From an uncultured Acidobacteriota bacterium (GTDB lineage: Bacteria; Acidobacteriota; Blastocatellia; RBC074), in assembly GCA_963796275.1 (NCBI GenBank), contig CAWCKY010000001.1, forward strand, positions 992,001 through 1,056,000: a stretch of DNA of 64,000 nucleotides. Reading direction: 5' to 3'. Position numbers and translations under genes: made by a program. Of the stretch, positions 37,869-53,652 are shown in pieces. Every line of letters begins with the position of its first letter. The stretch's first letter is position 1. The notes below the pieces were generated by a model that worked only from the letters and a program-made list of their open reading frames with translations, had not been told where the DNA came from and searched no databases.

Positions 37869-38052
37869 TAAATGCCCTCCTGTTCCTGGCTGTTGCGCAC
37901 GAATAAGAGGCTGATAAAACTAAGATTTGATGCAAGACACGATGGTCATCCAGAATCTATCAGCCTACTCCATGTCCAATGTAATTATGGTAGCAGGCAA
38001 ATTCGGTTTGATTGTCACTGAAGAAGGCAGAGCCTGCTATTCCACTAGCGAT

Positions 38053-40964
38053 TCAGTTTATTTTTTCCATTAACGCAACCGGTAAATTTGAAAATACCTC
38101 GGATAACGGCAGGGAAATCTCTCCCTCCGATTTCTGCGCGCATACGCTTTTGCCGTTGAATCGATCTCGATAACATCCGGCAAGTTCCTTCGACAAGGCG
38201 ATCGCGGTATCTCCCCATACCTCGCTCGCAATCGGCAGACTGGAATTTTCCCCCAGTTTGGTGAAAAACCGGGAAGCGGCGACGATCACCACTTTACTGC
38301 CTGATATTCTCGCAAAAGCTATTGCGTGCCTTTCGCGGTCGCCGCTCACTTGAAGCGGTAGGTATGCGCCGAGATCGAATAGGTCGCGCTCTGTGCGGCG
38401 GAGGTTGAGAGCGCGCGCGATTATGAATAGCTTGATCCGGCCGTCTTCCAGATTTCTTAGCATATCCTCGATCAGTTCCGCTACGTCATTCGACTCCAAT
38501 GAATCGAGGAGAGACTGGCGGCGCGCGTAATCGACCGGGCGCCGGTTGTCCGGATCGACCATGCTGAAATCCCAGAGCTCCGTTCCCTGGTAGAAGTCGG
38601 GAATGCCGGGGGAGGTTATTTTCAGCAATGTCTGCGATAAGGAGTTGAACATCCCGGCCCGCGCGATCGCCGATTGGCTCTTCGTGAAATCATGGACGAA
38701 GGCCGACTCAGGAGTGAGTATCTCTCTAATGAAGTTGCGCACGAACCGCTCATACTCTTCGTTTTGATTGAGCCAGCTCGAGTGGATCTTCGCCTCCCTT
38801 ATCGCTTTGATCATGTATTCCTCGATTCGCACGACGAAAGATTGATCGGACTCTTCACCCTCAAACGGGGCAAACGGCCATACTCCGACGAGCGTCTGGT
38901 AGAGCAAATACTCCTCGCTAGCATCAGGAGCGAGCGACCCTTCGAATGGGGTTTTGCGTTCTGAATTGAGTTTTTGCCAGCGCCGCACGGCTCGGTACCA
39001 GTTCACCGGGTTTTCTGAGAGGACATTGATACGCGCCCGCGCATCCTCGCTCCGTTTAGTGTCGTGAGTCGATGTCGCAAGCAGCGTATGGGGCCAGCTT
39101 GCGAGTCGCTTTCGGTTATGTTCGTGGAATGTCTGGGTTGAGATGCCGAAAAGCGAGGGATCGCCGCCGACTTCGCAGAGGGAGGCGAGCGGATAGTAGC
39201 GGTAAAACGCCGTATCCTCGATTCCCTTGGCGGTGACGGGAGGGGTCAATTGCTGGAAACGCATAACGAAATCGTGCCGTTCTGCCCGCTGTTCTTCATT
39301 GATCCCCTGAGGCTCTTCGTGCAGAAGAACCGATGCGATGAATTCAAAAATCGATGAGCTTATCGCCGGGTTGCGTCGACGTGCGCTTCGCACGGCGCTC
39401 AGGATGTGGTGGCGGTCGTCATCCGCAACCTTTCCCTGCTTTGCGCGGATGTAGCTGCGATAGACGGGAAAAGAGGCAATCACCTCTCTGAGCGCATCCT
39501 CCAGGCTGTTGAGCGTGAAATCGCGTGAGTATCTGTGCTGTTCTGAAATCCGATCGAGTTTTCGCGCCAGCACGTGCAGCTCGCTCGACATCGCGGCGCG
39601 CAGGACCAGCTTTCTCCCTTCATACGACACATCGTCGAATCTATCCTGCCTTCCTGTTATCCGCTGCCAAATCTTAAGGAATGCGGTCTCATTCGATCGA
39701 TCGATGAAGACTCCATTCAGCAGATTCAGAAAATCGTAGCCGGTCGTTCCCTGCGTAGCCCAGTTTTCGCGCAGCTCTTCGTTGCGCCCCAGAATCTTTT
39801 CAACTATCACGAAGTGAGAGGGGATCTGATTGTTGATAATTGTCCATCAGTCGATTGCCCTCCACGCACCGCCCTCAGAGCGCCGCGCTGCAGCTCTTTG
39901 AGGTAAAGTTCGGGATCATAAAGCCCATCGATGTGGTCGACCCGCAATCCAGTAACCATGCCCTTTTTCACCATTCGCAGGATAAAATTATGAACGGCGG
40001 AGAAGACCTTTCGCTCCTCAACGCGGATCGCTGCCAGTTCGTTAATGTCGAAGAAGCGGCGAAAGTTTATCTCATCAGCAGCCACCCGCCAGTGCGATAA
40101 GCGGTAGGATTGCGCGCCGAGCAATTCCTCAAGCCGATTAAAACTGGCAGGGTCCCCCTTTACGCCATTGAACTCGCGGATGACCGTTGCGATCGCTCGC
40201 CGCATCTGGCTGTTTGAGGTGACGAGCGACGAAATTCGGCGTTTGACGATCTCCTTCTCGCGGCCGCGTTCCTTCACCTTCTCCGGATCGGTGTCGGTGC
40301 GGGGAGGCAGATGTTCAAGTGCCGTGATTATGCTTTCCAATTCGAGCCGGTGCGGGTGTGACTCTTTGAGGCTGGCGGAGATCATTTCGAGCGCCGGTTT
40401 GAGTATCAGTATCCAAGTGCGCGGTGCAATCGGCAGTTCAGTGTCATAGTATTTGGCAATGAAGGTGCCGCGCTGATATTGTATCTGAATCTCCTTGTTT
40501 TCGAGCACCCTCCCGTATTGGTCCCCTAACACCGGAAGCAGCACCTTATTGCTCATATCCTGCTTCGGCGGCTGCCAGTCGATGTCGAAAAAGCGTGAAT
40601 AGGTAGAACCGGGACCGTTCTCCAGTATGTCCATCCACCATACGTTGTTCGAGTCGGCAATGCACATGTGATTAGGAACAAGGTCCATCATCAATCCCAT
40701 CCCAAGTCCTTTGAGCTTTGCACTAAATTTAACAAGATTCTCATTCGTTCCGATTTCAGGATTGAGTTTCGTGTGGTCTGTCACATCATAACCATGCAGA
40801 CTGCCTGATCGGGCAGCCAATAGTGGAGAAGCATAACAGTCGCTAATCCCCAGCTTGTCTAGATAACCGCTGATCGATTCCGCATCTTTCAATGTGAAAT
40901 TACTATTAAACTGAAGCCTATACGTCGATGACGGTATCCGAATTGTTATGGAATTTTCAGGCAT
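38053..40964 (-). CDS. treY: Malto-oligosyltrehalose synthase (frameshift near 39840)
   Basis: [33 protein letters not shown]; then [40 protein letters not shown]. Confidence 0.93.
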
Positions 40965-41023
40965 ATCTAAGCAATTTAAATTTCTTGTCGATCGTAACAA
41001 ATTCATTTATTCTTAATTGTTGT

Positions 41024-41038
41024 GCAATCCTCACGCCG
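41024..41038 (-). promoter_or_regulatory. sigma54 -24/-12 promoter for treY
   Basis: CGGCGTGAGGATTGC (GG-N10-GC). Confidence 0.65.
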
Positions 41039-41072
41039 ATCGAACTGATCTACCTAATCTACGTCCTTCCCG

Positions 41073-41133
41073 TGTAATGTGAAAAAACACTTGTAGCCTG
41101 TTAGTACACGACCGGTTGTATCGAACCTATTCA
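41073..41133. promoter_or_regulatory. Candidate enhancer boxes TGTA-N9-TACA (three)
   Basis: TGTAATGTGAAAAAACA 41073, TGTAGCCTGTTAGTACA 41092, TGTATCGAACCTATTCA 41117. Confidence 0.55.
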
Positions 41134-41227
41134 TGATTCAGATATTTTAAGTTCTAATTTGTTATGTGGATTGACAAAATAGGCATAAATAGGGGGGTTG
41201 ACTGCGAAATGAGGGTTGGGGGTGCTC

Positions 41228-41242
41228 TGGCCTCTAACTTGC
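41228..41242 (+). promoter_or_regulatory. sigma54 promoter upstream of candidate sRNA
   Basis: TGGCCTCTAACTTGC. Confidence 0.65.
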
Positions 41243-41253
41243 TTATTTAATAC

Positions 41254-41414
41254 GTGAGCGTTATAGGTTCTTGCAACGCACAACGGCATGAATACTGAAC
41301 ATGCAGGGAGCAGTATAAAGGAGCCAGGTGGGGAGCTGGCTCTTTTCGTGCCGAATTCAAAGCTGTCCTGAGTAGAGTTCTTGAAAGGCTACTTTGCTCT
41401 GGGCAGCTTTTTTT
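41254..41414 (+). ncRNA. Candidate sigma54-dependent structured sRNA A
   Basis: Four consecutive hairpins; GAGCCAG-GTGGGGAG-CTGGCTC-TTTT and final AAAGCTGTCC...GGGCAGCTTTTTTT terminator. Confidence 0.55.
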
Positions 41415-41594
41415 GTTCGCAATCCATATCCAGTGTAGCGCCAATCAAACACAATCCATACATATTACCAGTACGAATTAGTTCACATTTTTTCATCCAT
41501 TTGCTACGAAAGCGGTCGCTTTACATCCATTCACAAAGCTAAGTAATCTAGACAGAAGTGTTTAGAGTTGATACCCGGGGATCCGTATTTTTAC

Positions 41595-41609
41595 TGGTAT
41601 GGGCCTTGC
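41595..41609 (+). promoter_or_regulatory. sigma54 promoter for Clp-like ATPase
   Basis: TGGTATGGGCCTTGC, 30 nt before ATG. Confidence 0.7.
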
Positions 41610-41638
41610 AGATTCATTAGATATCTCCCGGAATAAGG

Positions 41639-42796
41639 ATGTCACATATGAAACAGCAATCAGAGATCATGAAGGCAGCAGCTGCTGCCGTGGGTTCAAT
41701 GCAGAATTGGATTCCACTCAACGCCGAAGAGAGGTGCGATGAGGCAGGGGTATTCGAAGAGGGGATATCTTCAAGGATCGTTGCACAGGATGAAGCTATC
41801 CGTGCTATGTCGCAGCTCTATCAACTTTATTTGGCTGATTTGAACATGCCGAACAAACCGATCGGGACGCTCCTCTTCCTGGGTCCTACCGGTTCCGGCA
41901 AAACACGTGTCGTCGAGGCGGCCTCAGAGGTGTTGTTCGACGATCCATATGCGATGGTCAAAATTGACTGTGCCGAGTTTCAACACTCGCACGAAATATC
42001 GAAACTGATCGGCTCGCCGCCCGGATATTTGGGGCATCGTGAAACACATCCGATGTTATCGCAGGAGAACATAGACCGTTTTCAGACGCCAACAAATAAG
42101 CTTACCTTAATTTTATTCGATGAGATAGAGAAGGCGTCCGATGCGCTATGGCAACTCTTGCTTGGCATTCTCGACAAAGCGACGCTCACCCTGGGCGACA
42201 ACAGAAGGGTCGATTTCTCGAACTGCATCATCGTCATGACGTCCAATCTGGGCGCCCGTGAGATGAGCGTTCTGACCGAAGGTCAAATGGGCTTTGCGCC
42301 AACCGAAGCAATTTCCTCGGACCTCGATGCGAGGCTGGTAAAAATCGGAATTGAGGCGGCGCGGCGTAAATTTTCGCCCGAATTCATGAATCGCCTCGAT
42401 AAGATAGTCGTTTTTCAAACCCTAACCCGCGCCGCGATGGAGCGGATTTTGGACCTTGAATTGGATCTTCTGCAACGGAGGATTCTATCGACCGGACGCA
42501 GCGCTTTTATCCTTAAATGTAGCGATGAGGCAAAGGAATTTTTGCTTAAGGAAGGCTTCGATCGCCGCTACGGGGCAAGACCGCTCAAGCGTGCCATTGA
42601 ACGACATATTCTCGTTCCCGTCTCGAATATGATCTCTACCGGACAGCTTTCAACCGGTGACATTATGCTTGTCGATGTCAACGATGTTCGGAAAGGGCTC
42701 TGTTTCGGGAAGGCTTTCCCGTCATTAAGCCTGGATCATTGCGATCAGAGCAGCGGATTTTTCCCCGCACCTCAATTGCAAAGATTGGCTACATAA
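41639..42796 (+). CDS. Stand-alone ClpA/B/C NBD2-like AAA+ ATPase
   Basis: FLGPTGSGKT, LIGSPPGYLG, LFDEIEKA, MTSNLG, FSPEFMNRLD, YGARPLKR; no N-domain or NBD1. Confidence 0.9.
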   Translation: MSHMKQQSEIMKAAAAAVGSMQNWIPLNAEERCDEAGVFEEGISSRIVAQDEAIRAMSQLYQLYLADLNMPNKPIGTLLFLGPTGSGKTRVVEAASEVLFDDPYAMVKIDCAEFQHSHEISKLIGSPPGYLGHRETHPMLSQENIDRFQTPTNKLTLILFDEIEKASDALWQLLLGILDKATLTLGDNRRVDFSNCIIVMTSNLGAREMSVLTEGQMGFAPTEAISSDLDARLVKIGIEAARRKFSPEFMNRLDKIVVFQTLTRAAMERILDLELDLLQRRILSTGRSAFILKCSDEAKEFLLKEGFDRRYGARPLKRAIERHILVPVSNMISTGQLSTGDIMLVDVNDVRKGLCFGKAFPSLSLDHCDQSSGFFPAPQLQRLAT

Positions 42797-42938
42797 CGTA
42801 CGGCAACTGTCGTGCGCACACGGCTCGGCTAAAAGGCCGGTTGATTAGGAAGATGTATAAAGCGAATTAACGTGACGGAGCATTCTTTCGCTTCGCATCC
42901 ACTCCTGCTTATCCGGCCTTGTCTTCCACGGACGATGG

Positions 42939-43088
42939 TTATAATCCCAGGGTCCGTCGCTTAGTTATCAGCTGAAGTGCCAAAACAACCACTGCAATTA
43001 CCAGCAGCAGATGGATGTTACTTCCCACTCCGCCCAAAAAACCAAGCAGCCAAAGAATTAAAATAATCGCAAGGATCGTCCATAACAT
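42939..43088 (-). CDS. lmo0937-family (DUF5670) 49-aa membrane protein, not in ORF track
   Basis: MLWTILAIILILWLLGFLGGVGSNIHLLLVIAVVVLALQLITKRRTLGL; AAGGA RBS. Confidence 0.88.
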   Translation of the reverse strand: MLWTILAIILILWLLGFLGGVGSNIHLLLVIAVVVLALQLITKRRTLGL

Positions 43089-43118
43089 AATATCCTTCTT
43101 TGCCTGCTTTAATAAAAG

Positions 43119-43133
43119 GCAACTGATATGCCT
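43119..43133 (-). promoter_or_regulatory. sigma54 promoter for lmo0937-like gene
   Basis: AGGCATATCAGTTGC. Confidence 0.65.
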
Positions 43134-43151
43134 GTCTCAAACTATCATTAC

Positions 43152-43207
43152 TGTAGCAGCCCGATGCAGCGCGTATCGTAGAAATACAAGTGTCTGTAGT
43201 CAATACA
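43152..43207. promoter_or_regulatory. Three tandem candidate enhancer boxes (19-20 bp period)
   Basis: TGTAGCAGCCCGATGCA 43152, CGTATCGTAGAAATACA 43172, TGTCTGTAGTCAATACA 43191. Confidence 0.6.
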
Positions 43208-43282
43208 TTCAGTTGCATTATTATTATATAAGATTGCGTGGTAATATTGGGTGAAGGGCTGTACTAAAACCGAAACGCGCTA

Positions 43283-43297
43283 TGGTCTGAGCTTTGC
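43283..43297 (+). promoter_or_regulatory. sigma54 promoter for the ElaB/holin/DUF3618 operon
   Basis: TGGTCTGAGCTTTGC. Confidence 0.6.
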
Positions 43298-43413
43298 AAG
43301 AAAGGCTAGGGAGACTCATCGCTAAGATTGAAAAAGACCTGGGGGAGAGCGAGTTACACAAAAATGATTTGAGCTACCTCTGGGGATTAAAGGCATTGAG
43401 TTACTAGGAGGAG

Positions 43414-43806
43414 GTGAACATGGATAGGATGGATAGGACGGAATTCAAGTCTAACCGGGAGTACCAGGATAATTTGCATCAGGATGAAGAAGTGTTGAGG
43501 GAGCAGGGTTATATGGCTGGAGGGGGTATGACTTTTGATCGGGTGAAGGCGGCGGTGGCAGATTTTTTATATGAGGCAGCTGAAGTGATCCATCATAAAA
43601 GTTTAGGGACCGGCAGTTCCGAAATATCGAATTTCGGTGACCGTGCCGCTAACTGGTTGGAGCATTCAGCCGGCTATGTGAGGGAGATGGAGCCGCAGCA
43701 GTTAAAGGCGGATTTCGAAGATAAAGTCCGCCGCCATCCGGGGCGGAGCCTCATAATCGCCGGGGTGGTAGGGCTGGTTATAGGCAGCGTGATTCGCAGG
43801 AGGTAA
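43414..43806 (+). CDS. ElaB/YqjD (DUF883)-like tail-anchored protein
   Basis: C-terminal VRRHPGRSLIIAGVVGLVIGSVIRRR; AGGAGG RBS. Confidence 0.75.
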   Translation: MNMDRMDRTEFKSNREYQDNLHQDEEVLREQGYMAGGGMTFDRVKAAVADFLYEAAEVIHHKSLGTGSSEISNFGDRAANWLEHSAGYVREMEPQQLKADFEDKVRRHPGRSLIIAGVVGLVIGSVIRRR

Positions 43807-43810
43807 TTAT

Positions 43811-44230
43811 ATGTTCGAGCGGCACGGACAGGAGAGGATTTTATATTCATCATTGCAGCGCGAATCGATTGGAGATCTGCTCAGCAACCTGGCGGCTCAA
43901 TCGACCACTCTCGTGCGCGACGAGATCGCGTTGGTCGGGCGCGAATATTATGAAAAGGGAAAGCATGTTCGGCCGGCGTTGATCGTGCTGGCCGTTGGCG
44001 CCTTTCTCGCTATGCTCGCATCGGTGACCCTCTGCGCGGCGATTGTCCTTTTCATAAGTCAATATATTGACATCTGGATTTCTGCTGCGATCACAGGAAT
44101 CAGTTTAGGGATTATCGCCCTGTTGATGATTTTGGTCGGCGTCAGCCGAATGAAGCAGACAAGCCTCAGGCCTGAGCAAACTTTAAAGTCGCTGGAGGAG
44201 AACAAAGAATGGCTGAAAGAAATTACCTAA
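43811..44230 (+). CDS. Holin-X / YqjE-like membrane protein
   Basis: SIGDLL..L....LVRDEIAL, two TMs, PEQTLKSLEENKEWL. Confidence 0.85.
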   Translation: MFERHGQERILYSSLQRESIGDLLSNLAAQSTTLVRDEIALVGREYYEKGKHVRPALIVLAVGAFLAMLASVTLCAAIVLFISQYIDIWISAAITGISLGIIALLMILVGVSRMKQTSLRPEQTLKSLEENKEWLKEIT

Positions 44231-44670
44231 CTGAGGGCCGCCCAGCTTCTGCTTCGGCTCATGCTCCGGAACGTAGTGCTGAAGAGATTCGGAAGGACAT
44301 CGCATCGACGCGCGAGTCGATCACCGAAACGGTGGATCAGTTGAGTGATCGTTTCGGGCAGACTTTAGATTGGCGCACGTACGTATCGGATCATCCGCTG
44401 GCTGCTTTGGGGGTGGCGGCAGGGATCGGATTTTTGGCAGCGGGATTATTCAGGCATCGCGCTTCGGCGAAAGATCGCTTTACGGATGCTTTGGCCGATG
44501 CAGTCGAAGATATGTCGGAACGATTTCGTAATCACCTCGATGGGCTGGGTTTGAAAAGACCCGGCCTGGCGATGACGATGAGAGCGGCGGCAGCCGGTGC
44601 GATTGCCAGAGCTGCAACCGCCTATTTGAGTAGCCGTGTCGTTGGTGGCGACAACTACAAGAACTCATAA
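44209..44670 (+). CDS. DUF3618 domain protein
   Basis: RSAEEIRKDIASTRESITETVDQL; HPLAALGVAAGIG. Confidence 0.85.
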   Translation: MAERNYLTEGRPASASAHAPERSAEEIRKDIASTRESITETVDQLSDRFGQTLDWRTYVSDHPLAALGVAAGIGFLAAGLFRHRASAKDRFTDALADAVEDMSERFRNHLDGLGLKRPGLAMTMRAAAAGAIARAATAYLSSRVVGGDNYKNS

Positions 44671-44690
44671 AACGGAATGAAGGAGGAAGT

Positions 44691-45155
44691 ATGGCAGACA
44701 CACCAAGAAGCGAACAGAATCAAGCGAAACAGGCCACACCGGGAGGCCAGACTGCCGAACAGATAGCCAGCGCGGCGCGGCAGGCTCGCGGATATATGTC
44801 AGACACAGAGCGCCAAACGGGGCAAACAGGGCAAACGGGGCAGGCTGGGCAAGCGGGACAGGCCGCTCAGAAGGCGAAAGAGAGAGTATCCGATATGGCC
44901 GGCCAGGCACGGGAGACTATAAATCATGCCTATTCTCGCGCTAGTCGTGGGATGAACGAGACCTGGGACCAGGCGATGGTTTACAGCAAAGACCATCCGG
45001 CAACGGCTACCCTGGTGGCTTTCGGAGCGGGGCTCGGGATCGGCCTCTGCATCGCAGGGACTTTCGGCGGCCTACAGTCCCGCAGCCGCGCACGCCGTAT
45101 AGTACCTCCGATAATGAACGCGCTTTCGGATATTGCCCGGGAATTTTTCCGTTGA
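44691..45155 (+). CDS. ElaB-like/LEA-like protein with (QTG/QAG)n repeat
   Basis: QTGQTGQTGQAGQAGQA; HPATATLVAFGAGLGIG; AAGGAGG RBS. Confidence 0.75.
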   Translation: MADTPRSEQNQAKQATPGGQTAEQIASAARQARGYMSDTERQTGQTGQTGQAGQAGQAAQKAKERVSDMAGQARETINHAYSRASRGMNETWDQAMVYSKDHPATATLVAFGAGLGIGLCIAGTFGGLQSRSRARRIVPPIMNALSDIAREFFR

Positions 45156-45189
45156 TAACGGTTCAGGAACGAATAAATGATACCGAAAC

Positions 45190-45258
45190 CGTCCCAGTTG
45201 CCCCAGTCGCCCCCATTGTCCTTGTTGTCCCAGTCACCCCGGTCGCCTCGGTCGCCCC
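45190..45258. repeat. Nonamer tandem repeat (GTCGCCCCA-like), intergenic
   Basis: About seven degenerate 9-mers before the kinase RBS. Confidence 0.65.
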
Positions 45259-45284
45259 TTTCCGAGGTTGAAGGAGAAGAATCG

Positions 45285-46934
45285 ATGCCCAAAGAGAAGC
45301 GGACCATTCTCCTCGTCAGTAAAAATAATACGGATCCTCAGCCCTGGCGGGAGTATCTGGAGACCGACGACGCAATCGACTGGTCATTCATCGAGGAAGA
45401 GTCGGCCGCGAAAGCTGCGACGAGCTGTCTGCTGATCAGACCCGATTGTCTTCTGGTCAGCGGAACCCCATCGGGGATCAATGATGTGCTGGCGGCTCTG
45501 CAGGAATCGATAGACCAGATTCCGGTGATCGTGATCACCGATTCGGGCGGGGATGAATCTTTGGGACCAATTGGAAGAGAAGTGGGAGAGTGTCTGAATC
45601 GTGAGGCTGTCTCGTCCGGCGTTCTCCGCCGGACTGTCAGCCGAGCGATAGAGATGACCAGGATGCAGTGTCTGGTTGAACAACAGGCGCGGCAGATCGA
45701 TGAACTCAATCTGCGGTTGGAGACCGAACGGGGCCAGATGATGGAGCGCGAAAGGCGGGCGCGCGATCTGGCCGAAGCGGTCAACCGGGATAAGGATGAA
45801 TTCATTGCGGTCGTCTCACACGAATTGCGAGCCCCCCTCAATGCCATACTCGGTTGGGCGCGCATTCTCAAAATCGGGAAATACAACGCAAAAACATTCG
45901 AGCATGCGGTCGATGTGATCGAACGCAGCGCCCGTACCCAGCAGCGATTGATCGAAGACCTGCTCGACACCGCGCGGGTCATCAGGGGGAAGCTCCGATT
46001 GGAGACCAAACCCGTCGATCTCGCCCGGGTCATCGAGGCTTCCGCCGATTCCGTTCACCCGGCCGTCGAGGCTAAGGGCATAGATTTAAAATTGAAACTG
46101 AAGGGTAAGAACAATGTCATTACGGGTGATGCGGACCGGCTGCAGCAGGTAGTCTGGAATCTGTTATCGAATGCCGTCAAATTCACGCCCGAGGGGGGGC
46201 AGGTAGAGGCTCAACTCGAACGGGCGGACCCTTATTTACAAATTATCGTGAGAGATTCGGGCAAAGGCATCAGCCGCGATTTTCTGCCCTATATCTTCGA
46301 TCGATTTCAGCAGGCCGATCTGGCCAGCAGGCGCCGCCACAGCGGGTTGGGGCTCGGCCTGGCGCTCGTACGGCATCTCGTCGAGCTGCACGGCGGAACA
46401 GTCGAGGCCGATAGCGCGGGTGAAGGGCAAGGATCTACCTTTATTGTGAGGCTCCCGCTTCCGGCTATTCGGCAGCGAGTCGATGAAAAGAAGCAAAGTG
46501 CCCGCGATAAATCGGTTGCCATCAGCTCCTACTCGCTCGACGGCATACGCACGCTGGTGGTGGATGATGATCCGGATGCGCGCGATCTCGTGGCCACCTT
46601 GCTGCGGCAATATGGCGCCCATGTCACTACAGCGGCTTCCGCCTCGGAGGCGCTCGTATGCATAACATCCAGCGATTCATCCAATCGAGCCGAGATTCTG
46701 GTCTCTGACATCGGGATGCCGGAAGAAGATGGATACTCCTTGATCGAGTCGATACGGCGACTCGCCCCCGAAGATGGAGGTTCCATTCCTGCCATCGCGC
46801 TCACCGCGTATGGGCGCGCGAGCGATCGCATCAGGGCGCTTTCAGCGGGTTTCCAAACGCATATGCCGAAACCCGTCGAACCCGCAGAGCTTGTCATGGT
46901 GATATACAGTTTGACGGGCCGCGCCAGTTATTGA
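45285..46934 (+). CDS. Hybrid histidine kinase (degenerate receiver-HisKA-HATPase-receiver)
   Basis: SHELRAPL, NLLSNAVKFT, DSGKG, GLGLGL, VVDDD, SDIGMP, KP; AAGGAG RBS before ATG 45285. Confidence 0.93.
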   Translation: MPKEKRTILLVSKNNTDPQPWREYLETDDAIDWSFIEEESAAKAATSCLLIRPDCLLVSGTPSGINDVLAALQESIDQIPVIVITDSGGDESLGPIGREVGECLNREAVSSGVLRRTVSRAIEMTRMQCLVEQQARQIDELNLRLETERGQMMERERRARDLAEAVNRDKDEFIAVVSHELRAPLNAILGWARILKIGKYNAKTFEHAVDVIERSARTQQRLIEDLLDTARVIRGKLRLETKPVDLARVIEASADSVHPAVEAKGIDLKLKLKGKNNVITGDADRLQQVVWNLLSNAVKFTPEGGQVEAQLERADPYLQIIVRDSGKGISRDFLPYIFDRFQQADLASRRRHSGLGLGLALVRHLVELHGGTVEADSAGEGQGSTFIVRLPLPAIRQRVDEKKQSARDKSVAISSYSLDGIRTLVVDDDPDARDLVATLLRQYGAHVTTAASASEALVCITSSDSSNRAEILVSDIGMPEEDGYSLIESIRRLAPEDGGSIPAIALTAYGRASDRIRALSAGFQTHMPKPVEPAELVMVIYSLTGRASY

Positions 46935-47033
46935 TTGCTTTAGGCGTATTGAATGTTCAGAAACAAATTTCCGGAATCCGCAATCTATGCGCATCCGTCA
47001 ATAAACAGTCCGCAATCAAGAAAGAGGGAAGTC

Positions 47034-48635
47034 ATGAACAGAGCAAAGGTGCTTGTTATCGACGATGATCCTGAAATGCTCGATCTGACCCAGTATGAGC
47101 TGCAGACCCGTGGTTATGAGGTGATTACGGCGAAGAATGGCGAGGAAGGGTTGAAAATTATTGGCGAACACGGCGTCGACGTCGCGCTCACGGACCTCCA
47201 GCTTCCTGATATTCACGGAATTGAACTGGTCGGGATGTTGAAGGAGATTTCGCCGCGCACGGAAATAATCATGGTGACCGGCTACAGCTCGCTCAACGAT
47301 GCTATCGGCGCGATCAAGGCCGGCGCATTTTATTTCATCGAAAAGCCGGTCGAATTCGAGGAACTGTCTCTCCTGCTCGAGAAGGCTATCGAACGCGGCA
47401 GCCAGGCCGAGGAGATCAAGAACCTGCTGGGACGATTGAGCGAGCGAACCTCGTATTACAATCTGATCGGCAGCAGCAAGGCCATGCAGGATATCTATGA
47501 GATTATCGAAGGCGTCGCCGAATCGGACGCCAACATAATGATCTTCGGCGAATCGGGGACCGGCAAGGAGTTGATCGCAAATGCTATCCATTATAAGAGT
47601 CTGCGCGCCAAGAAACCGTTCGTTAAGATCAACTGCTCGGCGCTGCCGAAAGAGCTGATCGAGTCGGAGCTATTCGGTCATACCAAAGGCGCATTCACCG
47701 GCGCGGCGACCGAGAAGACCGGATTGATCGGGCAGGCGAAGGGGGGCAGCCTCTTGCTTGATGAGATCGGTGAGATGCCCGTTGAATTGCAGCCCAAGCT
47801 TCTGCGCGTACTGCAAGAGCGCGTCTACTATCGGTTAGGGAGTGAAAAAGCGCTCGAAGCCGACTTCCGGTTGATCTCGTCGACCAATCGCGATCCGCTG
47901 GTGGCGATCCGCGATGGGCATTTGCGTGAAGACCTTTACTACCGCATCAACACCATCGAAATTCACGTACCGCCTCTGCGCGACCGCGCGGAAGATATCC
48001 AGCATCTGGCCGAATATTTCCTGAAAATATATGCTGAAAAGTACCATCGCCAGGTGCACTCGATATCACAGCACGTCTATGAACGAATGTTCGAGTATTC
48101 TTGGCCCGGCAACGTGCGCGAGCTGCAGAATGTCATCGAGCGTGCGGTCCTACTCAGCAAGGGAGATATGATCGAAGAGAGCATCCTGCCCACGGCTATC
48201 TCGGTACAGCCGGAGGCAGCCAGTGTCCCGGTGCCGGAATCATCACTGCCTGCGACCGGCAGCAAATCTGAAGCAGGGGTGTCAAATGCACAGGATTTGA
48301 CGCTGGAGCAGATGGCCTGGTTGATAGTTAACCGAATCCCGGATTCGAAGGACGGGAGGCATCGAACCGACACGATCAAACAGTTTGAAGGCGCCATCGT
48401 CAACGCCGCTCTCGAGCGCACGAGAGGCAACAAGCAGGCGGCTGCCAACCTGCTCGGCCTCTACCGCCCCCGCCTTTACACGCTGCTGAGAAAACACAAC
48501 CTGGGCAAGACGATCCGTGAAGTCGACCGGTCTATCACAGATGCCGAGCTGGAAGAACAAGAAATGGCTGAGATGGATTCTCACGCTATGGTAGATAATG
48601 GGCTTACTCACACGATGCGTTCGGCGGGAGACTGA
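47034..48635 (+). CDS. NtrC-family sigma54-dependent response regulator
   Basis: Receiver (VIDDD, TDLQLP), GESGTGKE, GAFTGA, WPGNVREL, Fis-type HTH GNKQAAANLLGL. Confidence 0.96.
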   Translation: MNRAKVLVIDDDPEMLDLTQYELQTRGYEVITAKNGEEGLKIIGEHGVDVALTDLQLPDIHGIELVGMLKEISPRTEIIMVTGYSSLNDAIGAIKAGAFYFIEKPVEFEELSLLLEKAIERGSQAEEIKNLLGRLSERTSYYNLIGSSKAMQDIYEIIEGVAESDANIMIFGESGTGKELIANAIHYKSLRAKKPFVKINCSALPKELIESELFGHTKGAFTGAATEKTGLIGQAKGGSLLLDEIGEMPVELQPKLLRVLQERVYYRLGSEKALEADFRLISSTNRDPLVAIRDGHLREDLYYRINTIEIHVPPLRDRAEDIQHLAEYFLKIYAEKYHRQVHSISQHVYERMFEYSWPGNVRELQNVIERAVLLSKGDMIEESILPTAISVQPEAASVPVPESSLPATGSKSEAGVSNAQDLTLEQMAWLIVNRIPDSKDGRHRTDTIKQFEGAIVNAALERTRGNKQAAANLLGLYRPRLYTLLRKHNLGKTIREVDRSITDAELEEQEMAEMDSHAMVDNGLTHTMRSAGD

Positions 48636-48667
48636 ACTAACTTGAAGAGGGAAGGGAATATGAGTGT

Positions 48668-48889
48668 ATGAACAAGGAAAGAAAAGATGACCCGAAGCCT
48701 AAACCTCCACCCGCCCCCCAACTGCCCAACCTCCCATGGAGCCCTGACGATCCTTTCCAACTGGATCCGGAGCGAAAAGAGCCAGTTACTACAAGTCTGC
48801 CAGAAACAGAAAAAGAAAATGATGGGGCAACGCCGCCGGCGCGACCAAAACGCGAGAGACGAGAAAATGAAGAAAGTAATGAGCAATAA
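48668..48889 (+). CDS. Small Pro/Glu-rich hypothetical protein
   Basis: 73-aa ORF with purine-rich RBS directly after the regulator; no motif. Confidence 0.35.
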   Translation: MNKERKDDPKPKPPPAPQLPNLPWSPDDPFQLDPERKEPVTTSLPETEKENDGATPPARPKRERRENEESNEQ

Positions 48890-49052
48890 CTATAATAGAA
48901 CACACACAGGTATTTTTTTAGTACATAGACATGACTTTCTTCAATCCATTTTAGTTATTATGTACACATAAAATTCCTATTTCTCGCATCGAAATATCTC
49001 CAAGCATACAGAATATAACAAGTTGAGTATTTTAGAAAAATCGCAATGTTAA

Positions 49053-49067
49053 TGGCATTGAGGTTGC
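49053..49067 (+). promoter_or_regulatory. sigma54 promoter upstream of candidate sRNA B
   Basis: TGGCATTGAGGTTGC; GGTA-N9-TACA box at 48909-48925; IHF-like TCAACTTGTTA (minus strand) at ~49016-49026. Confidence 0.75.
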
Positions 49068-49078
49068 TAGGCAGTTGA

Positions 49079-49220
49079 TGACCATTTTAACGAATGGTCA
49101 GCTCAAGTACAGGCGAGGGACTTTCGGGGGAGTGAGTTCCTCGCCGTCATGAGTTGGGATGGCTGCTTGCGAATAGCTGTCACACGAGGGAAAGCTATTC
49201 TCAAGCAGCCATTTCTTTTG
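49079..49220 (+). ncRNA. Candidate sigma54-dependent structured sRNA B
   Basis: Three strong hairpins starting at the predicted +1: TGACCATT/AATGGTCA; GGCGAGGGACT/AGTTCCTCGCC; ATGGCTGCTTG.GAATAGCT/AGCTATTC.CAAGCAGCCAT followed by a T-tract. Confidence 0.7.
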
Positions 49221-49357
49221 ACATCGATACCGAACAGCGCCGGAGGTTAGTCAAACTTATGCTTGGCAGCCATAAGTTACCTTCTGGCGCTCGTCCTAGC
49301 TATTCTGGCGATACCAAGGCGTATTTCCTCTACCTTGTCGTGGTATCGATGTATGAA

Positions 49358-49876
49358 TTATCGAACTGTCGTATACTCGCGCGTATAGACCGGCCGGAGG
49401 TCTCTCTCCTCAACAACCACCTCAGTCAGCGATAGTGACCGAACACCTATTTGGAGTCCCTCATTGAGTTGTTGAATCAAGATGACCCGTCCATTATTGA
49501 ACCGGAGCGCGTCTCGGTAGACGTACGGCTTATCAGTTATCTGAGTGAAGGTAGCTTCCTCTCTTTCGTTTAGGCCGTGCTCTTTCTGAAGACGCGCCGG
49601 GATGCCCTGAACATCCAGCCGTGCACCCGGCGGAATACAGACCGCGGGCAGCGCTCTCTCGATCTGTCCGTTGGCTGATTCCATCCCACGATCCATCCAC
49701 GTTTTGAATCTCATCCATAAACTGGATTCCGCTGTGACCTGATATTGTTTCTTTATCTTATCGAGGTCAGTCGGCGATGCCAGCCCTTTCGAACCAGAGA
49801 GGAATCTGTGGACGAAAAGCGTTTCGCCTTCAACGGCCAGACGGTTTTTAAAGCTATGCAATGAATAGTCGCACAT
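49358..49876 (-). CDS. Conserved hypothetical protein (MCDYSL family)
   Basis: AGGAGG RBS; MCDYSLH..RLA..GE.L, AVCIPPGA, F.NG...L..L.EG pattern. Confidence 0.8.
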   Translation of the reverse strand: MCDYSLHSFKNRLAVEGETLFVHRFLSGSKGLASPTDLDKIKKQYQVTAESSLWMRFKTWMDRGMESANGQIERALPAVCIPPGARLDVQGIPARLQKEHGLNEREEATFTQITDKPYVYRDALRFNNGRVILIQQLNEGLQIGVRSLSLTEVVVEERDLRPVYTREYTTVR

Positions 49877-50241
49877 ATTCTACCTCCTAAATATCCTGGG
49901 CGATGCCCTGCTTGAATGACGATTACTGAATCTACTCTCTTTACTGCTTCTTCGTTGAGTATTAAGTCTTCAACAGTTTATCCGGTCGTCTTCTATTATT
50001 CCGGGTTCATACCAGGCGATTCGAATGGGAGGATTTCAACATAGCCTTACCCGGTAATCATTTCGTTTTGGAGGATTCTTTTTCTTAGCTGAAACCGCTT
50101 GCTGTAAGTTTACCTCATTTCTATGGGTTTGAGAACCGAATAGAGGCATACAGCTAATTTTCGTGGAATATCATTGATATGAGATTGCTTTTCTATAGTT
50201 TAAAGAGGGACCGAGCATCACAATGTCGCGCACCTTCGCAA

Positions 50242-50333
50242 CGCGGCGGCCCGAGACGACTGCTTTCTCCTGAATTTCTGTGAAAGTTGTATAACAGAAA
50301 TTCAGGAGAAAGCGGTCGTCTCGGGCCGCCGCG
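50242..50333. repeat. Near-perfect 40-bp inverted repeat (12-nt loop)
   Basis: Arms 50242-50281 and 50294-50333 with one T/G mismatch. Confidence 0.9.
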
Positions 50334-50412
50334 CTCGAGCGTCTCACTATTCATCTATTCATTTCATAAGGGTAATAAGAAGCAATTTGATTTTTCCTCT
50401 GCTCCCCACCAC

Positions 50413-51603
50413 TCACCGTCTCGTAGCACTGTTGCGAGGCGAGCTGGATCGAACAGTTATTTCCGTTCCGCTCGGGAGATCGAGGTTATCGCGGCCTTGG
50501 ATCAGAACAGTCCCGGCGCCTGCGCCGGCCCCAACCGCGGCTCCGATGGCAGCGCCCGATCCGCCACTGGCTACTGCGCCGATTATCGCGCCGAGGGCCG
50601 CTCCGATGCCTGATCGTGTGATCGTGCGGGTCGATTGACTGTCGTCATCCTTAATAGTGCCTTCACTCTCTATCTTGACCTCTTTCCCGTCAGGCGTGCG
50701 GATGTTTTCGAGTGTGCCTCTGAAATCGTATGTGCTGCCGTCGCGCATCCGAATGCGGTCGAAATTGAGCGTCAGCTCTGCGCTCCCGGTTACACGTCCC
50801 GAACTCTCGATGTTGGAAACGATTCCTTCAATCACGGCACCTCTGTATTGGGAAGGCGATCGCACCTCCATGCTGAAACGATTCGTGGAACTGTCTTCCT
50901 TCGTGGACAGGTTTGTGGTCAGAACGGCTGTAAGCCTGGTGTTATTGGGCACGATAAATCGCCCTTGAACCGGTCGATTGGGGCCGTTGTTATCACGCGG
51001 ACCCGTATAGAGATTCAATTGCGCGATGTCGGACGTCTTTTCATATAGGCTCGTGACGACTATCGGCTGGGAGAAGCGTTCCGCATAAATGCTGCGCGTG
51101 ATCCGCATCCGCTGGCCTCTCTCGGTCGGGTCGAATGTAACGTTGTAATCGCTGCCCTGTGAGCCGGTCCTGTTGACGATCAACTGGTCGCCATTGAGTG
51201 ATGCTTTGATGCGCACCGTCCGCCCACGTTCCGTTGTCTCCGTACGAGTCCGCCCGTCCGCGTCGAAGGTGGTTTTCGGCGCACGTGTGGAGGCCATCGT
51301 GAAGCGGCGTCCGCTCTGCTCAATTGCGATCACATCCGGAGCATCAAGTCTTCGCGTAACGCGCTCGCGCGCCCGTTGTTGCTCGCCCGACGGCAATCCG
51401 CGGATTGCCCGCTCAACTATATCGTCCGCGTTGTCGCTGCGTGAAACATCAAGCCGCCATGTCCCCGTCAATTGGCCGGGATTCCGTTGAGAACGCCGTT
51501 GATTTGCTTGCTGTGCGCTCACGGAAGTATCAGCCTGCACAAGCAGCATTAACAGAAGCGCAAGCATCATGAAATAGTTGATGAATTTTATTTTTACTGA
51601 CAT
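50413..51603 (-). CDS. Secreted protein with C-terminal glycine zipper (YMGG-like)
   Basis: Signal peptide; GIGAALGAIIGAVASGGSGAAIGAAVGAGAG; LPSGTEI. Confidence 0.85.
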   Translation of the reverse strand: MSVKIKFINYFMMLALLLMLLVQADTSVSAQQANQRRSQRNPGQLTGTWRLDVSRSDNADDIVERAIRGLPSGEQQRARERVTRRLDAPDVIAIEQSGRRFTMASTRAPKTTFDADGRTRTETTERGRTVRIKASLNGDQLIVNRTGSQGSDYNVTFDPTERGQRMRITRSIYAERFSQPIVVTSLYEKTSDIAQLNLYTGPRDNNGPNRPVQGRFIVPNNTRLTAVLTTNLSTKEDSSTNRFSMEVRSPSQYRGAVIEGIVSNIESSGRVTGSAELTLNFDRIRMRDGSTYDFRGTLENIRTPDGKEVKIESEGTIKDDDSQSTRTITRSGIGAALGAIIGAVASGGSGAAIGAAVGAGAGAGTVLIQGRDNLDLPSGTEITVRSSSPRNSATRR

Positions 51604-51662
51604 TTTCTGGCCCCTCTCTGTTTTGAAATAACCAATCTACAAGCTACATCTTCTAATTGTCA

Positions 51663-51677
51663 GCAAGAATAGTGCCA
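51663..51677 (-). promoter_or_regulatory. sigma54 promoter for glycine-zipper gene
   Basis: TGGCACTATTCTTGC, near-consensus. Confidence 0.8.
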
Positions 51678-51966
51678 GCATTTTGGTTGGGAATGATTAT
51701 CGCCGAGTTGATAAAACTTTAACTATTGAAACTTCACCTTTGAAATATTGAGCGTATTAGGTTAAAATATAGGTTGGGTTAACCTTCTAAATCTTAAATC
51801 AATATAGTCACTCATGTGAATGGGGTACTTGCCTCTGAAGTTTTGAAGGGTTTCCAATAGGGTGCTTCAGACGCAAGAAATTTATCAGGCTGGGTAGTCA
51901 GCTTAAGCTCAGCCGATAGGGGACATTAGCCGCCTCACCTCCAGCAACCGATTTTGTAGAATTATT

Positions 51967-53652
51967 ATGAACGCCAATCATAAATCGCTTAGGTATTCGA
52001 TAGCGCTCTTCCTGGGGTGGCCGTTATTCTGGCTTTCGATGACCTGTTTACTCCTCAGTCCACAGGTCTTAAGCGGAACATCTGTGGAACAGAAGCGAGA
52101 AATATTTATCCTGGCCAGTCTCGCGGTGATTGCAATTCTTGGGGTGTTCATAATTTACATGATTGTGGAACTGAATAGGCGCCAGCGCGCGAAAGAGGCG
52201 CTCCGTCATAGCGAGGAGCGGTTCAGGCAGCTCGCCGAGAACATTGGCGCGGTCTTCCATATGACTGAGCTTCTGGGCGACTCGGACCCCGGTCGAATCA
52301 TTTACGTCAGCCCCGCGTATGAGAAGATTTGGGGAAGCCCGCGTGAGAGTTTGTATACCGATAGTCGCTCCTGGGTAGAGTCGATCCATCCGCATGACAG
52401 GTCGCGCATAGAAGCGGCGATACCCCAAATCGCAACAGTGAAGTTCGATATGGAATATCGCATAGTGCGGCCCGACGGGGGAGTCCGGTGGGTACACGAC
52501 CGTATCTTTCCGATCTACGATGAAAAGGGGAAGCTTTACCGCATCGCCGGAATTGCCGAGGACATAACTGAACGAAAAAAAGCCGAGGAAAGTTTGGCGC
52601 GGGAGAAGAGTTTCTCCGACACCGCGATCGACAGCCTGCCCGGGATATTTTACCTTTTTGATATTCGGGGCCGTTACCTCAGGTGGAATAAAAACTTTGA
52701 ACGAGTCACCGGCTACTCGCACCTGGAGATCGCGGGTATGCATCCGCTGGACTTCATCACCGGCAAAGACAGGCAATCGCTTGCCGAAAAAATCGGCAAG
52801 GTCTTCACTGCGGGCGAGGCGGCCGTGGAGGCCGAGCTCGCCTCGAAGGACGGGCGGGAGACCGCCTACTTTTTCACGGGCAGGAGGATCTATTTCGACG
52901 GCAGGCCGTGTCTCGTTGGGATGGCTATCGATATTACCGAGCGAAGGCAGGCCGAGCAGGCGTTGCAGCAGTTAACGGGCAGGCTCCTCCAATTGCAGGA
53001 TGAGGAGCGCTGGCGGATCGCTGCCGAATTACACGACAGCCTGGGCCAAAGTCTCGCGATTATCAAGAACCGGGCGATGATCTGCCTGCGCGCCTCCTTC
53101 GATGAAGAGAGGCTCAAAGAGCAGCTTGAAGAGATATCGTCCACCGTCACTTCGGCTATCGATGAGGTGAGGGAGATCACTCACAACCTGCGGCCATACG
53201 AACTGGACCGGCTCGGGCTCGTCTCAGCAATCAAATCGATGATCAGAAAGGTCTCCGATTCAAGCTCGATCCGGCTCTTGTCAGACCTCGAACAGATCGA
53301 CGGTCTGCTCTCGAAAGAGGCTGAGACCAGCGTATATCGGATTGTGCAGGAAGGGCTCAACAACGTAATCAAGCACGCCGATGCAACCGAGGCGGGCGTG
53401 ACAATCAAAAAGGACGGACGCCAGGTCATTGTCACGGTGCGGGATAACGGGAAAGGAATTATACCGCGCACTACTCGCAGCAACGGAAAGAATGGCAGCG
53501 GTTTCGGTCTGGCCGGCATTGCGGAGCGGGCGCGGATGTTGGGAGGAGTACAGCAGCTTATTTCAGAGCCGGGTCGAGGAACTACTCTTACTGTTCGACT
53601 GGCACTGGAAGGAGAAAAGGATGAACGGAAACGCGCGCATAGTCATCGCTGA
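51967..53652 (+). CDS. PAS-PAS sensor histidine kinase (HisKA_3)
   Basis: Two TMs, two PAS/PAC, ERWRIAAELHDSLGQ, QEGLNNVIKHA, DNGKG. Confidence 0.94.
   Translation: MNANHKSLRYSIALFLGWPLFWLSMTCLLLSPQVLSGTSVEQKREIFILASLAVIAILGVFIIYMIVELNRRQRAKEALRHSEERFRQLAENIGAVFHMTELLGDSDPGRIIYVSPAYEKIWGSPRESLYTDSRSWVESIHPHDRSRIEAAIPQIATVKFDMEYRIVRPDGGVRWVHDRIFPIYDEKGKLYRIAGIAEDITERKKAEESLAREKSFSDTAIDSLPGIFYLFDIRGRYLRWNKNFERVTGYSHLEIAGMHPLDFITGKDRQSLAEKIGKVFTAGEAAVEAELASKDGRETAYFFTGRRIYFDGRPCLVGMAIDITERRQAEQALQQLTGRLLQLQDEERWRIAAELHDSLGQSLAIIKNRAMICLRASFDEERLKEQLEEISSTVTSAIDEVREITHNLRPYELDRLGLVSAIKSMIRKVSDSSSIRLLSDLEQIDGLLSKEAETSVYRIVQEGLNNVIKHADATEAGVTIKKDGRQVIVTVRDNGKGIIPRTTRSNGKNGSGFGLAGIAERARMLGGVQQLISEPGRGTTLTVRLALEGEKDERKRAHSHR

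Follow-up and report, generated by a model that had tools for sequence, protein, structure and literature searches.

By which regulator are stress-protection genes switched on in the Acidobacteriota? These organisms are among the most abundant soil bacteria, and the regulation of their survival under drying, starvation and osmotic stress is poorly understood. The question is raised by a 10.7-kb gene cluster on contig CAWCKY010000001.1 of an uncultured Acidobacteriota bacterium of the class Blastocatellia, which was analysed within a stretch of 64,000 nucleotides (positions 992,001 to 1,056,000 of the contig; hereafter the window). The original prediction, made from the sequence alone, had proposed that sigma-54 together with a dedicated activator runs a general stress or desiccation regulon here. 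We find that the sigma-54 regulon cluster is real and conserved, that it encodes a two-component activator of its own, and that it comprises an enhancer dyad first defined here (TGTA-N9-TACA) and two new families of small RNA (sRNA). A two-component sigma-54 regulon that is specific to the Blastocatellia and serves stress protection best explains these observations as a whole, and we give this explanation a probability of roughly 0.65. In the following, genomes are designated by G-numbers and compared loci by L-numbers; the window belongs to genome G000 (9.46 Mb, 54% G+C), where it corresponds to G000:C1:992001-1056000, and G002 is of the same genus.

Conserved sigma-54 promoters and two small RNAs

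All seven oriented GG-N10-GC boxes with TTGC that had been predicted were recovered at the same places and on the same strands by pattern search (GG-N8-TTGC) and by reading of the sequence, and each of them faces a gene or a structured non-coding RNA (Table 1). Five of the seven fit the pattern TGGYNY-N5-TTGCW, and the scores range from 10.3 to 16.9 with a sigma-54 matrix that is independent of the local sites. A genome without rpoN would have spoken against the proposal; one rpoN is present, encoded in a 548-amino-acid (aa) open frame at C3:1419712 (PF04552, 198 bits), along with 44 strong matches to the activator domain PF00158 among the 60 matches listed.

Whether such sites are concentrated in the cluster, as a genome-wide matrix scan had been expected to reveal, depends on the stringency of the search. 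The loose pattern GG-N8-TTGC is not enriched across the window (34 found vs. 37.3 expected from shuffles; 11 vs. 6.6 in the 10.7-kb region used for all enrichment counts), which is what would be seen if AT-rich intergenic DNA had produced the boxes by chance, with ordinary sigma-70 promoters driving the genes; in the same direction point the boxes at 43133 and 41038, which deviate at -26, and sigma-70-like hexamers that occur in the same spacers, at chance frequency. Stricter patterns and the matrix were therefore used, and with these the sites are enriched, which argues against chance. TGG-N8-TTGCW occurs 631 times in the genome and five times in the region (0.72 expected), and TGGYNY-N5-TTGCW, a pattern picked after the sites had been seen, occurs 166 times in 9.46 Mb and five times in the region (0.19 expected), making it the densest 10.7-kb cluster of the genome. 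At a matrix score of at least 14 the region holds three of the 131 sites of the genome (0.15 expected) and is joint top cluster, and at a score of at least 11.5 it holds six of 816 (0.93 expected) and is one of eight clusters with at least six sites.

Comparison of orthologous promoters, likewise proposed at the outset as a check, bore the boxes out, their positions being kept in G002 and G021 despite diverged flanks. The box of the Clp-like ATPase gene has a counterpart in G002 that scores 15.4, lies 45 nt before the gene and is preceded by an exact dyad 134 bp upstream; that of the glycine-zipper gene scores 16.7 there, with 36 nt between it and the gene. G002 also keeps the boxes at the divergent positions and those of both sRNAs, among them TGGCCCGCAAGTTGCA before sRNA A (score 13.1, with an exact dyad 128 bp upstream) and AGGCACGATACTTGCA on the side of the lmo0937-like gene (16.7), to which AGGCACGATTCTTGCG (13.8) corresponds in G021. 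The promoter at 43283 belongs to an unusual type, TGGTCT/TGGTCC...TTTGCA, which also heads the operon in G002 (TGGTCTATACCTTGCA before the small-protein genes) and in the loci L037 and L038.

The two non-coding RNAs behind the boxes at 41228 and 49053 were followed separately. sRNA A is 87% identical between G000 and G002, its first about 60 nt being identical, whereas the flanking spacers barely align, and the conservation starts 11-12 nt past the -12 GC, that is, at the predicted sigma-54 start site. Its consensus fold comprises 49 pairs, three of them with compensatory changes between the two sequences compared, with a folding z-score of -3.85. In a BLAST search of 200 other genomes of the class sRNA A was not found, save one 38-nt match at chance level, nor was it found in G001, G006, G007 and G020; it is restricted to the genus. 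sRNA B is more widespread. A covariance model built from three sequences detected it in 35 of the 81 genomes of the family, representing 8 of 17 genera; its folding z-score is -8.3, and 10 of 49 predicted pairs show compensatory changes across the three sequences. The upstream sequence was long enough in 29 of the 30 best loci, and in each of these 29 a box with a score of at least 12.5 precedes the model start by 61-92 nt. Judged by such comparison, this constancy is the strongest single evidence that the boxes would be working promoters, and it is difficult to reconcile with chance matches. A copy of sRNA B is found 1.5-13 kb from the orthologue of the activator on the same contig in G001, G006, G020, G021 and G007. 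(G004 is one genome within the tallies of activator orthologues and of sRNA B, and no claim depends on it.) Neither RNA matches a family of Rfam 15 in an E-value-mode scan of 38000-54000, which returned sub-threshold chance matches to microRNA and CRISPR-repeat families alone.

Other parts of the genome are also rich in sigma-54 sites. Clusters denser than the one studied, with up to eight sites scoring at least 11.5 per 10.7 kb, lie at C6:2847000-2895000 and C6:2654000. The sigma-54-rich island at C6:234-272 kb was considered as a second part of the regulon and rejected, as it has its own activator and the dyad is absent from it save one pair at C6:246 kb. At G000:C6:240451-244116 (L066) a strong box (15.6, C6:242455) stands directly before a gene for an ATP-dependent DNA ligase, and a LigD primase-polymerase/phosphoesterase gene is transcribed divergently from the latter (end-joining repair). 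This locus is without the dyad, and the approximately 40 kb around it are rich in sigma-54 boxes and encode a 907-aa activator of their own.

The enhancer dyad and the activator encoded beside it

An enhancer motif had been part of the original prediction, and one exists. Alignment of the spacer between the lmo0937-like gene and the small-protein operon in G000, G002 and G021 leaves a single conserved block amid diverged DNA, and this block contains TGTA-N9-TACA, which to our knowledge matches no described site. Arrays of this dyad stand upstream of five of the seven local promoters, and in the window as well as in relatives they lie 45-175 bp upstream of the boxes. With up to one mismatch allowed, the window contains 18 dyads vs. 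8.2 expected, a number that none of 100 shuffles reached. Genome-wide there are 1117 such dyads, but only three arrays of at least three, of which two belong to this cluster and the third is an 11-bp tandem repeat. Near boxes, in the window and relatives, the consensus is TGTAT-N7-ATACA, the centre of which lies mostly 61-107 bp upstream of the GG, with peaks of the dyad-box distance at 71-74 and 94-107 bp.

The geometry was examined with a control that preserves intergenic composition, the dyad being counted 45-175 bp upstream of a box (score at least 11) and at the mirrored distance downstream. In the window, 11 pairs have the dyad upstream and none at the mirrored distance. In 17 non-redundant related loci of Blastocatellia (273 kb) there are 36 pairs upstream vs. 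5 downstream, and 0-6 in each of the other distance bins; 15 of the loci counted are independent of the derivation of the motif but are related to one another, and these numbers describe a pattern and not a probability. From this count were dropped L031 (same contig as L022), L041, L042, L044 and L047 (near-copies of L043) as well as L039, L045 and L046. Dyads are thus far more frequent upstream of boxes than at the mirrored distance, and taken together with the enrichment, the conserved positions and the 29 sRNA B promoters this renders it highly improbable that the boxes are chance matches. K-mers common to the seven upstream regions (TGTACTAA, ACACTTGTA) were set aside as hints alone, inflated because divergent promoters share DNA. 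Pairwise alignments of the upstream regions of the Clp-like and the glycine-zipper genes between G000 and G002 revealed no clear conserved enhancer.

Dyads next to boxes were also noticed at a distance from the cluster. At G000:C4:554162-555511 (L054) two dyads 19 bp apart and a box scoring 12.9 precede a baeRF_family10 gene, the product of which has weak similarity to Rv2629-type ribosome hibernation factors and which is divergent from malQ (4-alpha-glucanotransferase); this locus (C4:554269) is a candidate for an outlying regulon member. It and the divergent genes at C6:246 kb (PEBP; epimerase-VKOR-SPW-amine oxidase) are the best dyad-linked candidates in G000 outside the window. At C6:1783170 (region C6:1782944-1783279) the sRNA B model has a second, weak match (E 5e-4); it follows a box scoring 16.2 at a distance of 89 nt, and a one-mismatch dyad is present 130 bp upstream. 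A near-identical pair of box and dyad is located at C7:896137 (region C7:896000-896152); both may represent sRNA B paralogues.

The hybrid kinase and the NtrC-type activator with a GAFTGA motif that had been claimed for the cluster were both confirmed by domain matches. In the activator, PF00072 spans residues 33-139, PF00158 residues 171-338 (226 bits, with GAFTGA at residue 246) and PF02954 residues 475-512. It scores below every named equivalog cut-off of NCBIfam (LuxO, GlrR, NtrC, AtoC, ZraR), the best match being AtoC (437.7 bits vs. 714), with NtrC at 418 vs. 558.6, and by these scores it appears to belong to an unnamed lineage. In the N-terminal approximately 190 aa of the hybrid kinase, scans revealed neither a known domain nor a membrane segment. 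Many genomes of the class encode orthologues of the activator that are 56-81% identical to it along almost its entire length. The named contigs with close relatives are labelled Acidobacteriota, Blastocatellia or Pyrinomonadaceae, save one: L039 (CAZOOE010000432.1, "uncultured Clostridia bacterium") encodes an orthologue that is 63% identical, and its label is probably a binning error.

The layout around the activator gene is conserved. The whole cluster is present in the same order in G002, and the four small genes, together with kinase genes and the activator gene, are also found in G021. In six relatives (L028, L029, L037, L038, L040, L043) the dyad and a sigma-54 box directly head an operon in which one to three genes for hybrid kinases (PAS/GAF/REC) are combined with the gene of the activator orthologue; in G000, G002 and G021 the four small genes sit between this promoter and the kinase gene. 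The gaps from the small-protein genes through the kinase gene to the activator gene are 19-22 nt (21, 22 and 19 nt in G000), and co-transcription from 43283 through to the activator gene is likely on the basis of this arrangement. The positive feedback that had been suggested is backed by the six relatives in which the promoter adjoins the kinase-activator operon itself.

A paralogous pair of hybrid kinase and activator is encoded at G000:C1:776243-780712 (L064/L030), its activator (C1:777743-779212) being 63% identical to the local one. No pair of dyad and box was found in this neighbourhood (L030), nor does a dyad or a sigma-54 box stand close to the two genes; the paralogue may share the enhancer or provide a second input to it.

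From these elements the following mechanism can be proposed. The cytoplasmic hybrid kinase, probably fed by further kinases, would phosphorylate the receiver domain of the activator, which would assemble on TGTA-N9-TACA arrays centred about 60-135 bp upstream of the -24 element and, using ATP, open the outward-facing sigma-54 promoters that flank each array. Its dyad-tied targets would be treY, sRNA A, the lmo0937-type membrane peptide, the small-protein operon and sRNA B. The operon of YqjD/YqjE-like tail-anchored proteins most likely runs into the genes of kinase and activator, which would result in positive feedback. The Clp-like and glycine-zipper promoters, which lie in the same neighbourhood and have a dyad in relatives and none recognisable here, might be controlled by the same circuit.

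Cargo of the cluster and its probable role

The features of the cluster are compiled in Table 1. For the trehalose gene, the Clp-like ATPase, the lmo0937-like peptide and the glycine-zipper protein, the domain and family matches agree with the predicted identities, with small corrections.

Table 1. Features of the sigma-54 cluster (window positions; UAS, upstream activating sequence; ORF, open reading frame; scores of boxes are matrix scores).
Feature	Position	Strand	Remarks
treY box	41023-41038	-	CGGCGTGAGGATTGCA; 12.0; -24 element CGG, not TGG (weaker box); UAS array 63-88 bp upstream
sRNA A box	41228-41243	+	TGGCCTCTAACTTGCT; 11.7
Clp-like ATPase box	41595-41610	+	TGGTATGGGCCTTGCA; 15.6
lmo0937-like gene box	43118-43133	-	AGGCATATCAGTTGCC; 10.3, lowest of the seven
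Box of operon 43414-48635(-48889)	43283-43298	+	TGGTCTGAGCTTTGCA; 12.75
sRNA B box	49053-49068	+	TGGCATTGAGGTTGCT; 14.2
Glycine-zipper gene box	51662-51677	-	TGGCACTATTCTTGCT; 16.9, highest of the seven
UAS array 1	41073-41133		Dyads at 41073, 41092 (exact) and 41117; between divergent treY and sRNA A promoters
UAS array 2	43152-43211		Dyads at 43152, 43172 and 43191/43195; conserved alignment block
Two one-mismatch dyads	48909-48966		At 48909 and 48950, upstream of sRNA B
Degenerate dyad TGTA-N10-AACA	41434-41451		Upstream of Clp-like promoter; aligns with perfect dyad of G002
Hybrid histidine kinase, cytoplasmic	45177-46934	+	HisKA-HATPase_c-REC
NtrC-type enhancer-binding protein	46953-48635	+	REC, sigma-54 AAA+, HTH_8
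sRNA A, about 150 nt	41255-41407	+	Ends in terminator hairpin and U-run
sRNA B, about 140 nt	49079-49220	+	Three hairpins, the last a terminator with U-run
treY (malto-oligosyltrehalose synthase), two ORFs	38053-41006	-	39807-41006 (probable true start ATG 40964) and 38053-39810
AAA+ ATPase, 385 aa	41639-42796	+	AAA_2 and ClpB_D2-small, i.e. second nucleotide-binding module of ClpB/ClpA
lmo0937-family (DUF5670) membrane protein, 49 aa	42939-43088	-	NF033488, 45.8 bits vs. cut-off 30; PF18919
Four small membrane-protein genes	43414-45155	+	Gene order kept in G002 and G021
C-tail-anchored protein, 130 aa	43414-43806	+	No family match
PF07332 protein, 139 aa	second gene of 43414-45155	+	Domain match
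DUF3618 and DUF883_C protein, 153 aa	44209-44670	+	DUF883_C 27.5 bits vs. cut-off 27
154-aa protein	44691-45155	+	DUF883 N-terminal match 18.9 bits, under cut-off 25.4
Proline/charge-rich protein, 73 aa	48668-48889	+	Directly 3' of activator gene; motif PQLPN.P.SPDDPF; no family match
Glycine-zipper protein, 396 aa	50413-51603	-	Secreted or membrane; family match

The two treY frames (399 and 585 aa) overlap by 4 nt at 39807-39810 and together cover the TreY model of NCBIfam (996 positions), the first matching positions 5-371 and the second 408-994; the second reaches 610.8 bits with TIGR02401 (cut-off 498.65) and the first 376 bits. The split could be a frameshift, a sequencing error or genuine. 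The gene downstream of treY, about 630 nt away, is unrelated. The ATPase is not a full-length ClpB, because all its NCBIfam matches are far under the equivalog cut-offs. The DUF5670 family is found divergent from the kinase-activator operon in L040, too.

Within the operon, which had been labelled as ElaB-type, the label is firmest for the DUF3618/DUF883_C protein, and the PF07332 protein belongs to what we take to be the YqjE family; for the first gene the label stands less firmly, on a C-tail anchor and a weak cluster lead. The 73-aa frame behind the activator gene is a true small ORF rather than the longer frame overlapping it, and its homologues (L024:12145-12378; L026:5195-5449) have their own sigma-54 box in G020 and G006. 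The glycine-zipper protein is 47% identical over 354 residues to a protein of L043, and before the gene of the latter an exact dyad precedes a box scoring 15.2 by 98 bp. In relatives, dyad-linked boxes are followed by genes for BON, DUF5670, OmpA, glycine-zipper, ferritin-like, DUF2383 and YGGT proteins, as well as for Ysc84, HAD, AI-2E-transporter and outer-membrane beta-barrel proteins and a giant GH94 glucan enzyme.

Some further features adjoin the cluster. A PAS-PAS-HisKA_3-HATPase kinase (window 51967-53652, +) with a weak holin-like membrane match at its N-terminus is encoded divergently from the glycine-zipper gene and may be a further sensor of the cluster. Between an ORF of 172 aa (49358-49876, -) and the glycine-zipper gene lies a near-perfect palindrome of about 90 nt (window 50243-50332), which gives a spurious sub-threshold Rfam microRNA match (51 bits vs. 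a gathering score of 99) and may serve as a terminator in both directions or represent a small repeat element. Identical 14-mers about 4.73 kb apart (775/5512; 2065/6797), with a near-copy at 57647, suggest that the start of the window contains a duplicated segment or more than one copy of a mobile element.

Trehalose, BON, Dps and glycine-zipper proteins are typical general stress cargo. Profile models run on the whole genome detected no RpoS and no SigB/F/G-type sigma factor over cut-off, the models matching one primary-sigma-like ORF of 586 aa (under both cut-offs) and weak fragments resembling extracytoplasmic-function sigma factors; the factors that ordinarily run a general stress regulon were thus not detected. 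Because no such sigma factor was found and because the cargo here and in relatives (trehalose, DUF883-type, BON, ferritin/Dps-like, DUF2383, glycine zipper, OmpA) is a classic stress and dormancy set, we infer a role in stress protection. The circuit is most likely a programme for protection in stationary phase or under osmotic stress or desiccation, and there is good motivation to infer from the cargo a general stress and desiccation programme of the Blastocatellia. That such cargo is typically under RpoS or SigB elsewhere, as had been claimed, holds well for the YqjD/ElaB family: according to bioRxiv 10.1101/2024.08.16.608256, the YqjD, ElaB and YgaM proteins of E. coli act in ribosome hibernation under the control of RpoS, their genes being syntenic with yqjE/yqjK, and the Acidobacteriota have DUF883 proteins, too. 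The claim holds less well for lmo0937, as taken up below.

The same architecture could also answer a narrow cue, for instance envelope or osmotic damage or a nutrient, cell-density or redox signal received via the PAS/GAF kinases seen in relatives, and run a specialised programme of envelope maintenance and ribosome quiescence. A small dyad-tied regulon that in G000 is almost confined to this cluster would fit such a task, as would the many membrane and envelope proteins among the cargo, the approximately 44 activators of the genome, among which labour is probably divided, and the presence of other sigma-54-rich islands with other activators; according to Francke et al. (2011; PMC3162934), moreover, control of the cell exterior is a general function of sigma-54. 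It accounts less readily for the cytoplasmic protectants among the cargo (TreY and the ClpB-like ATPase; ferritin-like and DUF2383 proteins in relatives) and for the lack of an RpoS/SigB-type alternative for a general response among the factors found, and we consider a narrow cue rather unlikely.

Several observations limit, or weigh against, the reading as a stress-protective, locally controlled regulon and have to be set beside the evidence for it. In a sample of 151 genomes of the phylum, the activator was matched at E <= 1e-140 in nine (G000 included), all of the same class, so that its orthologue group is found in the Blastocatellia alone and not phylum-wide. At 45124-45181 there are a weak hairpin resembling a terminator and a sigma-70-like site, both being classes of element that occur at chance frequency. 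The 43414-43806 protein has no family match, the Atlas giving unnamed clusters and, as the nearest annotated one, DUF883 with a score of 0.81. The sigma-54 matrix was written from the sigma-54 consensus and not taken from a curated file, and the dyad motif was first derived from three of the loci in which it was later counted (the window, L022 and L027). Genome-wide pairing of dyads and boxes outside the cluster showed a weak association, with a small excess and a handful of candidates. The link of Listeria lmo0937 to SigB, a down-regulation by a SigB inhibitor as far as the accessible text of PMC3225968 goes, is modest.

The remaining points of this kind concern the protein that binds the dyad. 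In G000 the Clp-like promoter is without an N9 dyad at up to one mismatch and the glycine-zipper promoter without any dyad. Among the 29 sRNA B homologues the N9 dyad is found at four and either an N9 or an N10 dyad at 14 (about 1.6 expected), ten of the latter as CGTAT-N8-RTACA in two genera, and 10 of the 12 sRNA B loci of genus g15 have neither. The paralogue at C1:777743-779212 has the same helix-turn-helix stretch, ALERTRGNKQAAANLLGLYRPRLY, as the local activator and all its orthologues, and with approximately 44 activators in the genome more than one protein comes into question as the one that binds the dyad. The dyad might accordingly be bound by this paralogue, by both paralogues or by an unrelated regulator, with the local activator controlling some of the promoters; two of seven local promoters without a dyad would be compatible with this. 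The dyad adjoins the orthologue of the local activator in at least nine loci, however, where it heads the activator's own operon, and the neighbourhood of the paralogue is free of dyad-box pairs, for which reason we regard binding by another protein as improbable and the local activator as the probable binder.

Going beyond a stress-protective two-component regulon, one may ask whether the Blastocatellia, taken to be without RpoS- and SigB-type sigma factors, have rebuilt their general stress and dormancy response on sigma-54, in one self-amplifying module with a TGTA-N9/10-TACA enhancer, direct cargo and two sRNA families. The direct targets would then be trehalose synthesis, ribosome-silencing tail-anchored proteins, a disaggregase-like ATPase and envelope proteins, and the sRNAs would spread the response post-transcriptionally. 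We put this forward tentatively, as a possibility short of an even chance.

Relation to known systems

The mechanism as such is the ordinary one of NtrC-type activators, and a close likeness is with systems in which such an activator drives sRNAs. GlrR/QseF-GlmY and CbrB-CrcZ are NtrC-family regulators with sigma-54-dependent small RNAs, and LuxO, which controls the Qrr RNAs of Vibrio, is an NtrC homologue controlling sRNAs (PMC11407668, accessible text). In all three an activator with the REC-AAA+-HTH architecture receives its input from hybrid kinases, the -24/-12 promoters are preceded at about 100 bp by dyad enhancers, and small structured RNAs with intrinsic terminators are direct targets. 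The present system differs in that the activator falls under the LuxO and GlrR equivalog cut-offs, that neither sRNA is in Rfam, and that the protein cargo serves stress protection and not quorum, amino-sugar or carbon control. In the phage-shock system, too, a dedicated activator, PspF, drives a sigma-54-dependent stress operon that encodes small membrane-associated proteins; PspF, however, has no receiver domain and is held by PspA, whereas the present system is without PspA and its activator is of the two-component response regulator type.

In Borrelia, sigma-54 and an NtrC-like activator stand atop a stress and adaptation programme, the Rrp2-RpoN-RpoS pathway (accessible parts of PMC3037356 and PMC11109971). 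There, sigma-54 acts via one promoter, that of rpoS, and RpoS runs the cargo, while here the cargo genes have their own boxes and no RpoS was found. We know of no spore in the Blastocatellia. The enhancer-binding protein cascades of Myxococcus (Nla6 and Nla28 among others), at work in starvation-induced sporulation, are alike in that autoregulated activators and sigma-54 start a resting-state programme (PMC2875238, PMC9765219), and nla6 and the trehalose genes treY, treS and otsAB are up-regulated during sporulation of Myxococcus xanthus (PMC2875238). They belong to another phylum and another activator lineage, and the accessible text of the two reports describes neither sRNAs nor direct activator control of treY.

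That the architecture is new, as had been supposed, is consistent with a full-text literature search, in which no such circuit of Acidobacteria was found (subscription journals and supplements being outside its coverage) and no master stress regulator for the Acidobacteriota was found described. The locus offers a concrete and testable circuit, consisting of an activator gene, an enhancer dyad, seven mapped promoters and two new sRNA families. If the proposed reading is true, it adds a new activator-enhancer pair with conserved positive feedback, and enhancer-dependent, zero-leak promoters would run cargo that in other phyla has been placed under stress sigma factors of the sigma-70 family.

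With the regulons of RpoS, SigB and EcfG the cluster shares overlapping cargo. These regulons depend on a sigma-70-family factor that is freed by partner switching or proteolysis, whereas the cluster described here would depend on sigma-54 and be opened by an enhancer-bound, ATP-consuming activator; should a general stress response of the Blastocatellia indeed be built in this way, it would stand as a fourth, mechanistically distinct one beside RpoS, SigB and EcfG.

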